Source: a virus
Length of the DNA stretch: 17,535 bases
Strand: one strand, 5' to 3'
UHGV virus genome: UHGV-0122804
The notes beneath the pieces are model-generated. The model saw nothing but the letters and a program-made list of their open reading frames with translations. It had not been told where the DNA came from and searched no databases. The position numbers and the translations under genes are program-made. This document shows, piece after piece, positions 9,796-9,828 of the stretch (its first letter is position 1; each line of letters opens with the position of its first letter).

Positions 9796-9828
9796 AATGA
9801 TTCCATACCTACTATGTATGGAATCATT
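9796..9828. repeat. Motif B copy 3: perfect 13-bp inverted repeats with a 7-bp spacer; candidate recombinase core site or operator
   Basis: aatgattccatac (9796-9808), spacer ctactat, gtatggaatcatt (9816-9828). Lies about 100 bp upstream of the tyrosine recombinase gene. Confidence 0.6.

Follow-up and report, generated by a model that had tools for sequence, protein, structure and literature searches.

The 33-bp palindrome at positions 9796 to 9828 is, with a probability that we put at roughly 70%, the cognate core site of the tyrosine recombinase encoded just downstream of it, and the two would form a self-contained module of the Cre/loxP kind on low-copy plasmids, most likely serving multimer resolution. 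We infer binding by the recombinase, recombination at the palindrome, and the purpose of multimer resolution from a comparative pattern of conservation. In the proposed mechanism, one recombinase monomer would occupy each 12- to 13-bp arm, strands would be exchanged across the 7-bp spacer in the manner of Cre/loxP or the lambda Int core, and plasmid multimers would be converted back to monomers. In phage-plasmids the module may also help circularize incoming phage DNA. Recombinase bound at the palindrome would in addition regulate its own gene (int), and in the phage-plasmid clade the int promoter would be placed under the further control of LexA as part of the SOS response.

The stretch of DNA analyzed here (17,535 nucleotides, called the window below) is 98% identical to Escherichia coli phage Cyrano (pLF82) and approximately 75% related to Klebsiella phage-plasmids, similarities that assign it to the SSU5/pHCM2/pMT1-type group of phage-plasmids. 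A protein search located the recombinase gene on 933 PLSDB plasmids, among them Yersinia pestis pMT1 (87% protein identity), Salmonella Typhi pHCM2 (85%), and plasmids of Enterobacter, Citrobacter, and Klebsiella. More distant versions, with 45 to 59% identity, are carried by other Klebsiella phage-plasmids and by large plasmids of Pantoea, Rahnella, and Erwinia, so that the carriers of the gene-site pair comprise hundreds of enterobacterial phage-plasmids and megaplasmids. Of 5,426 complete E. coli genomes, 218 contain the region; its 252 occurrences are all plasmid-borne.

The palindrome consists of a left arm, AATGATTCCATAC (9796-9808), an asymmetric spacer, CTACTAT (9809-9815), and a right arm, GTATGGAATCATT (9816-9828). 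The first-pass annotation had described 13-bp perfect arms around a 7-bp spacer, and the sequence bears this out, with complementarity at 13 of 13 positions; extension of the arms is precluded by an A at both 9795 and 9829. No other perfect inverted repeat with arms of at least 13 bp and a spacer of at most 20 bp is present in the 17.5-kb window, none comparable arose in 60 dinucleotide-preserving shuffles of it, and the analytic chance expectation for such a palindrome is 0.005. Folded as a single strand, the palindrome reaches -11.9 kcal/mol (z = -7.1). The gap between it and the recombinase open reading frame (9927-11030) measures 98 bp, in agreement with the position about 100 bp upstream that had been claimed for it, and a complete 100-kb relative has one palindrome per replicon. 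Immediately 5' of the palindrome lies an A-rich tract with a short conserved leader (9774-9795, with CAAAAAAC at 9780-9787). In most phage-plasmid lineages an A-rich tract of this kind (e.g., AGATTTAAAAAAA or TTCAAAAAAC) is kept 8 to 20 bp 5' of the palindrome despite unrelated cargo further upstream, and the functional site may thus exceed 33 bp.

Across relatives, the palindrome and the recombinase gene remain together. A palindrome of 12-7-12 geometry stands just 5' of every full-length recombinase relative examined, some 200 loci ranging from 100% to 45% protein identity; the six relatives examined first agreed in the 12-bp arms but not in the spacer or in the DNA 5' of the palindrome, which was unrelated. 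A profile-based scan of one genome per species yielded 61 recombinase loci, 60 of which have the palindrome 5' of int, the lone exception being a gene fragment. Loss of the palindrome where the recombinase is retained, which the first-pass annotation had named as an observation that would speak against the site, was accordingly seen at none of the 60 full-length genes. An exact-pattern scan of IMG/VR, made from the side of the site, returned 114 contigs with the palindrome; 80 of these were fetched, and int lies approximately 100 bp 3' of the palindrome in 76, the other 4 ending too early to tell.

Arm sequence tracks enzyme clade. The arms of the phage-plasmid clade read (A/G)TGATTCCATAC, while those of the Pantoea/Rahnella/Erwinia/Xenorhabdus clade, whose Int proteins are 45 to 52% identical to that of the window, read (A/G)TGACTCCAGAC. 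Two arm positions differ between the clades, each change in one arm being matched in the other; symmetric variation extends to the outermost A/G position, as in GTGATTCCATAC...GTATGGAATCAC of a Klebsiella phage-plasmid (L011). Conservation of the site with compensatory arm changes, which had been proposed as a check on its function, is therefore what the relatives exhibit. The neighboring genes in the distant clade are unrelated to those of the window and include siderophore receptors, pagP, and an H-NS-like gene, and neither phage genes nor the adjacent helix-turn-helix (HTH) gene was found around the palindrome-int pair in the distant-clade loci examined, leaving the recombinase as the palindrome's only constant partner.

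The spacer behaves differently from the arms. Its length is constant at 7 bp and its sequence follows the pattern xTAxTAx, with the consensus TTAATAG or the complement CTATTAA, yet 12 variants occur among the 76 int-oriented IMG/VR loci, and more in other loci, over which the arms are fixed. The spacer stays with the int side of the palindrome while the DNA 5' of the palindrome varies, and it is found in both orientations relative to int. Two near-identical genomes, L121 (CTACTAT) and L002 (PhiR41_1; ATAGTAG), have the spacer reversed between flanks that are identical on both sides, and further reverse-complement pairs were observed (CTATTAA/TTAATAG and CTATAGA/TCTATAG), suggesting repeated physical flipping of the spacer. 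Loops between perfect inverted repeats are known to flip by mutation, independently of any recombinase, and for this reason we did not count spacer orientation either way as a sign of recombinase action. The reversal of a spacer between identical flanks does indicate that the orientation of the site relative to its neighbors is free, as fits a self-contained site.

The recombinase (367 amino acids, plus strand) is composed of helical core-binding and catalytic domains, as judged from Pfam matches, alignments, an AlphaFold model, and Foldseek searches. Its only Pfam matches are to the integrase central domain PF22022 (residues 71-133) and the catalytic domain PF00589 (residues 172-320), and the NCBIfam model for P4-type integrases aligns only from model position 137 onward. 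The arm-binding domain PF13356 has no recorded match in any of 113 protein clusters of the family, and in the AlphaFold model (mean pLDDT, 84.9) the protein is predicted to be all-helical to residue 200, with no beta strand before residue 203; the absence of an arm-binding domain claimed in the first-pass annotation is thereby upheld. PF13356 is present in all of the next-nearest relatives (at most 34% identity), and the family consequently looks like a P4/lambda-type lineage that lost or replaced the domain. Alignments also support the claim that the catalytic set is full: R185, K211, R284, H307, and Y316 are shared even with P4-type outgroups and are kept across the family down to 43% identity. 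The position usually held by the first His is occupied throughout the family by Arg (R281-x-x-R284), and with this substitution recombinase activity is an assumption on our part.

Structural comparison places the protein nearest to lambda Int. The best Foldseek match was lambda Int residues 75-356 on the COC' core site (1z19_B; TM score, 0.75; root mean square deviation, 3.5), followed in order by Tn1549 Int, XerH, IntI, and then Cre (E value, 7e-3; TM score, ~0.5). The recombinase-fold repressors MrpR and YopR were matched as well, and the fold alone is hence no proof of recombination. A phmmer search against all PDB chains produced no sequence match to a solved structure at E values up to 1. 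Membership in the Cre family proper (Dre, Vika, Panto, and others) was considered and rejected, there being no sequence homology and Cre being a weak fold match only.

Sequence features between the palindrome and int suggest how the gene may be controlled. A putative int promoter (9853-9881, plus strand), proposed from conservation only, combines TTGATC (9853-9858), a gap of 17 bp, and TAATAT (9876-9881). It matches the consensus at 8 of 12 positions, which is below the threshold of the consensus scan, and the scan made no call; its elements are conserved as blocks in the alignment of relatives, and L011 has the same geometry. In phage-plasmids this putative promoter starts 24 bp 3' of the palindrome. 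In Pantoea and Erwinia a -10 hexamer (TAGAAT or TAAAAT) lies at a fixed 15 to 20 nucleotides 3' of the palindrome, a distance at which the -35 region would overlap the right arm. Because the site adjoins the 5' side of the int promoter or overlaps it, the palindrome probably also serves in the autoregulation of int.

Directly 3' of the -10 hexamer in the window is a sequence resembling a LexA box, TACTGTTTACTTATACAGTG (9881-9900, plus strand), the sole occurrence of CTGT-N8-ACAG in the window. A box of this type is present in 107 of 121 loci of the phage-plasmid clade, in 22 variants with constant CTGT and ACAG ends and a variable center, and in 0 of 58 distant-clade loci. Given its conservation in phage-plasmid relatives, int appears to be SOS regulated in that clade through this predicted LexA box. 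A gene for a 128-amino-acid HTH protein (11025-11411, minus strand) converges on int and shares 6 bp with its 3' end (11025-11030); the protein is annotated in phage Cyrano as a putative lysogeny repressor, and convergence and overlap are found in all phage-plasmid relatives examined. Expression of this putative repressor gene (CYRAN_45) is about 10-fold above background in the lysogen, and Cyrano is reported to be inducible by genotoxic stress in the form of ciprofloxacin (PMC9928086). The HTH repressor has no peptidase domain match and so no obvious route to self-cleavage. SOS-induced transcription of int would run antisense into the repressor gene. SOS induction is a non-obvious design for a multimer resolvase, and resolution would oppose the formation of concatemers in lytic growth. 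We can only speculate about the reason for such induction: DNA damage may give rise to more RecA-driven multimers, or the antisense transcription into the repressor gene may itself be what matters.

The arm of the palindrome recurs within the window as single half-sites, in accordance with the first-pass annotation, which had taken the arm to be the conserved half of a dispersed motif. Exact copies are located at 4714 (plus strand), 5710 (plus strand), and 15846-15857 (minus strand), and a degenerate copy is located at 10533-10544 (minus strand); each exact copy extends to a common 15-mer, ATGATTCCATACATC. The complete 100-kb relative has the arm 12-mer at these four loci and nowhere else, making the motif local to a region of approximately 11 kb rather than genome-wide, and on this distribution a genome-wide operator model, along the lines of the C1-like repressor sites of P1, was discarded.

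Two of the half-sites lie to the left of the palindrome. The copy at 4714-4728 makes up the first five codons (MIPYI) of a 50-amino-acid open reading frame and is identical in E. coli, Klebsiella, Yersinia, Salmonella, and Enterobacter relatives that differ in the flanks and the downstream codons. The copy at 5710-5724 is intergenic, approximately 190 bp 5' of a tRNA-Asn gene (5914-5988). Its counterpart in L011, a Klebsiella phage-plasmid at 59% identity, has the same G variant (GTGATTCCATAC) as that genome's own palindrome arms; it lies (within L011 1597-1697) 15 nucleotides 3' of a tRNA-Gln gene, an association with a tRNA region common to L011 and the window.

The remaining two are within genes, on the minus strand. 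The half-site at 15843-15857 falls inside a dnaE-like gene (coding sequence start, 15593) and encodes CMES(L) on the opposite strand. Of 42 loci, 37 (22 haplotypes) share its sequence, TGT ATG GAA TCA TT, without a single synonymous change, among flanking codons that vary freely; the other five loci have a different, unrelated peptide at this position. Around it (window positions 15830-15875, dnaE codons ~79-93), amino acids vary on both sides, with MR, KG, NG, or GG before and ERGR or VRDR after. The variable flanks and the unrelated peptide in five relatives make it seem that the motif is embedded in a tolerant loop of the polymerase. The degenerate half-site at 10530-10544 lies inside int itself, at codons ~202-206 (VWNQ), and has two mismatches from the 12-mer in the window and 14 of 15 matches in pMT1, pHCM2, and Klebsiella relatives. 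This copy follows the arm type of its own clade, being GTATGGAATCA in phage-plasmids and GTCTGGAGGCA in three Rahnella loci (L027-L029, near position 3583). Since it covers the conserved codons VW-x-QG, the resemblance may have a function or may simply follow from the conservation of the Trp-x-Gln codons.

Over 77 oriented loci, all exact half-sites 5' of the palindrome are on the plus strand and all those 3' of it are on the minus strand, a regularity that should be counted as three or four independent observations rather than dozens, because the half-sites occupy the same few syntenic loci. Half-sites were absent from the distant-clade loci scanned. The invariance of the copies in dnaE and at 4714-4728, together with the G variant shared in L011, places the half-sites under selection at the level of DNA. 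The 7 bp that follow their arms (ATCnnnn) never equal the spacer of the palindrome; recombination between palindrome and half-site is therefore unlikely, and the half-sites have the look of sites for binding alone, presumably by a monomer of the recombinase. A simple scheme of the Cre/lox kind offers no place for such conserved half-sites.

No homology breakpoint in the region is stronger than the one at the palindrome's left edge, with 51 alignment starts at 9794-9797 and 75 at 9774-9797, and about one-quarter of the E. coli plasmids break homology at 9795/9796. That the spacer keeps to the int side while the flanks 5' of the palindrome vary could reflect a permissive slot for cargo beside an indispensable module, or else site-specific exchange between coresident plasmids that share a spacer. 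In pMT1 the slot is filled by the F1 capsule operon (caf1R-caf1M-caf1A-caf1; L008 1613-7370), which replaces the tRNA-phoH-grx block of pHCM2 and ends on the right precisely where the palindrome begins (L008 7370). The left junction falls approximately 43 bp before the position of the intergenic half-site of pHCM2, not at the half-site, and the proposal that the island is bounded by sites on both sides is only half true. MAFFT similarity at the left junction falls inside caf1R and is probably spurious. An integron-like model, with half-sites as scars of the left junctions of cassettes, was likewise abandoned: no copy of the arm borders recent cargo on the left, extra arm copies at left cargo borders were found in neither Cyrano nor the other relatives examined, and two half-sites lie inside the conserved int and dnaE genes, where a cassette junction is impossible. 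The cargo in Cyrano is a single gene just 5' of the palindrome, CYRAN_43 (L001 9486-10040). It is reported to be very highly expressed in the lysogen, at 723-fold over background (PMC9928086), indicating that the slot beside the palindrome hosts actively expressed cargo.

As to what recombination at the palindrome might accomplish, the first-pass annotation had favored a mode other than integration at a tRNA gene, and our surveys agree: none of the 252 places in the 5,426 complete E. coli genomes is chromosomal, and 26 distant loci contain no tRNA gene within 3 kb of int. All genome and IMG/VR loci scanned have an intact palindrome, and no division into attL and attR was found. The option of DNA inversion, also raised in that annotation, fared less well, as some 100 related loci are all colinear, with no inversion, reordering, or opposite-strand alignment between sites; shufflon-like inversion was rejected on the same grounds. 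Colinearity is what a resolution site predicts, yet it proves nothing, and no multimer or deletion junction was observed at the palindrome among the loci compared.

Several other explanations of the palindrome must be weighed against a resolution site. Palindrome and half-sites might be operators only, at which a protein of recombinase fold represses its own promoter and binds half-sites in the replication region without recombining DNA, in the manner of MrpR and YopR of SPbeta. Such a model would account for a palindrome that adjoins or overlaps the int promoter, for single half-sites at four other loci whose nucleotide sequence is conserved and which are followed by 7 bp that never match the spacer, for the Foldseek matches to MrpR and YopR, and for the apparent SOS control of int. 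It leaves unexplained why catalytic Arg, Lys, Arg, His, and Tyr, needless for a pure repressor, are kept to 43% identity and in comparison with true integrases, why the geometry is that of a recombination core, 12-7-12 with a constant 7-bp spacer, and why the module persists on Pantoea-type plasmids that have no half-sites or phage genes to regulate. We consider it quite unlikely. That the palindrome is instead the operator of the neighboring HTH repressor, or of another phage regulator, with its proximity to int incidental, is highly improbable: the HTH gene does flank int throughout the phage-plasmid clade, to which the half-sites too are confined, but the palindrome persists in Pantoea, Rahnella, and Erwinia loci that lack an HTH neighbor, its arms having changed in step with Int.

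The descent of the protein from P4/lambda-type integrases, a spacer equal to the 7-bp overlap of lambda-type systems, and the dominance of the palindrome's left edge among homology breakpoints would all suit an attP, at which the enzyme integrates the plasmid into the chromosome or into another replicon at a site sharing the core. The 252 plasmid-borne places in E. coli, the palindrome never split into attL and attR, the missing arm-binding domain, and the lack of a tRNA gene near int in the 26 distant loci make this very unlikely. A mere hairpin, such as a terminator or other RNA structure, or a chance feature, is scarcely credible. Although the single strand folds stably and an A-tract lies 5' of the palindrome, the stem is AT-rich and has no adjacent T-run, and the terminator scan made no call; moreover, the arm sequence itself is invariant, not only its pairing, and recurs as unpaired half-sites, and chance is disfavored by an expectation of 0.005. 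The interpretation of the palindrome as the core site of a multimer resolvase may be joined in phage-plasmids by a further one, unlikely in our estimation, in which the recombinase has a second, SOS-induced DNA-binding role at the half-sites, int is transcribed antisense into the repressor gene, and the left edge of the palindrome is a docking point for cargo. Release of LexA would then switch on int, and the protein would occupy the 15-nucleotide half-sites in dnaE and at the start of the small open reading frame. If true, such a role would couple DNA damage to the choice between lysogeny and lysis, or to the control of replication, in a family that includes pMT1 and pHCM2, and would make the left edge a recombinase-defined docking site for cargo such as the F1 capsule island.

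Among known systems, a resolution module of this kind invites comparison above all with Cre/loxP of P1, likewise a two-domain tyrosine recombinase without an arm-binding domain on a low-copy phage-plasmid, with one site per replicon, located 5' of the recombinase gene and built of 13-bp perfect inverted arms and a short asymmetric spacer. Multimer resolution is the function of Cre/loxP, and a general review notes that phage-plasmids may carry dimer-resolution recombinases (PMC7969092). The two systems differ in that no sequence homology is detectable here (phmmer against PDB, E values up to 1, with the Foldseek match to Cre at an E value of 7e-3 and a TM score of ~0.5), the spacer is 7 bp rather than the 8 bp of loxP, and the recombinase is of P4/lambda-type descent, with a predicted LexA-controlled promoter and extra half-sites. 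Lambda Int and the P4-type integrases, as represented by lambda Int at COC', share the best fold match (1z19_B), the Pfam central and catalytic domains, and the 7-bp overlap; unlike them, the present enzyme has no arm-binding domain, its site has long perfect inverted arms in place of weak core sites, and no tRNA or chromosomal target was found (5,426 E. coli genomes and 26 distant loci). XerH/difH, XerS/difSL, ResD/rfsF of F, and TnpI/IRS of Tn4430 likewise rely on one recombinase and a palindromic site for multimer resolution, and XerH is a clear fold match, but these single-recombinase Xer systems and plasmid resolvases have no sequence relationship to the present one, whose spacer measures 7 bp instead of 6; accessory repeats of the IRS type were not seen beside its site.

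The pair would count among the simple, arm-less tyrosine recombinases that act at palindromic core sites, and its geometry fits the inverted elements of 11 to 14 bp around spacers of 6 to 8 bp that characterize such sites; its half-sites and apparent SOS control are unusual. The sfx site of the Rci shufflon consists of one conserved 12-bp arm, 7 bp, and an unconserved second arm, and the half-sites described here resemble it; in contrast to the shufflon, no inversion was seen in about 100 relatives, three of the half-sites are inside genes, where inversion would be destructive, and the 7-bp segments of the half-sites differ among themselves in most lineages. The IntI gene of integrons is LexA controlled, and IntI/attI therefore shares with the present system a tyrosine recombinase gene with a LexA box and a site beside a highly variable cargo slot, but the cargo here is not bordered by attC-like sequences or half-sites, and the site is a simple duplex palindrome. 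MrpR/YopR resembles it in the recombinase fold and in having several dispersed sites of the binding type in a temperate phage genome; it differs in that the present protein has conserved catalytic residues and a 12-7-12 core site.

No description of this site or of the function of the enzyme was found in the full-text literature searched, which did not extend to the original pMT1 and pHCM2 papers, and an older mention is possible. If confirmed, the module would represent a Cre/lox-like recombinase-site pair of independent origin, derived from an integrase that lost its arm-binding domain, and would supply a function for the unexplained "integrase" of the medically important, nonintegrating plasmids pMT1/pFra of Y. 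pestis, pHCM2 of S. Typhi, and pLF82 of E. coli, and equally for that of Klebsiella phage-plasmids and large Pantoea plasmids. It comes in at least two natural specificities (TGATTCCATAC and TGACTCCAGAC arms) with many spacer variants, and orthogonal sets of this kind are sought by genome engineers. The palindrome also marks the exact boundary of a variable cargo slot whose occupants include the F1 capsule operon of plague.

Other repeats were noted in the window. Two inverted repeats flank the tRNA-Asn gene, one with 17-bp perfect arms and a 59-nucleotide loop (5549-5565/5625-5641), just 5' of the intergenic half-site, and one with 20-nucleotide arms that are 95% complementary (5990-6009/6053-6072), directly 3' of the tRNA; a scan against Rfam matched only the tRNA, and neither repeat fits a family. 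A second dispersed element, the inverted repeat ATAAGTA-N-TACTTATCTTT, is present at 1811-1834, 5164-5187, and 8027-8050, with weaker copies at 2680-2705 and 14095-14114. Its copies are intergenic and lie just 5' of genes (open reading frames at 1872, 2704, 8088, and 14177), and the element may be an operator or promoter element of early genes.
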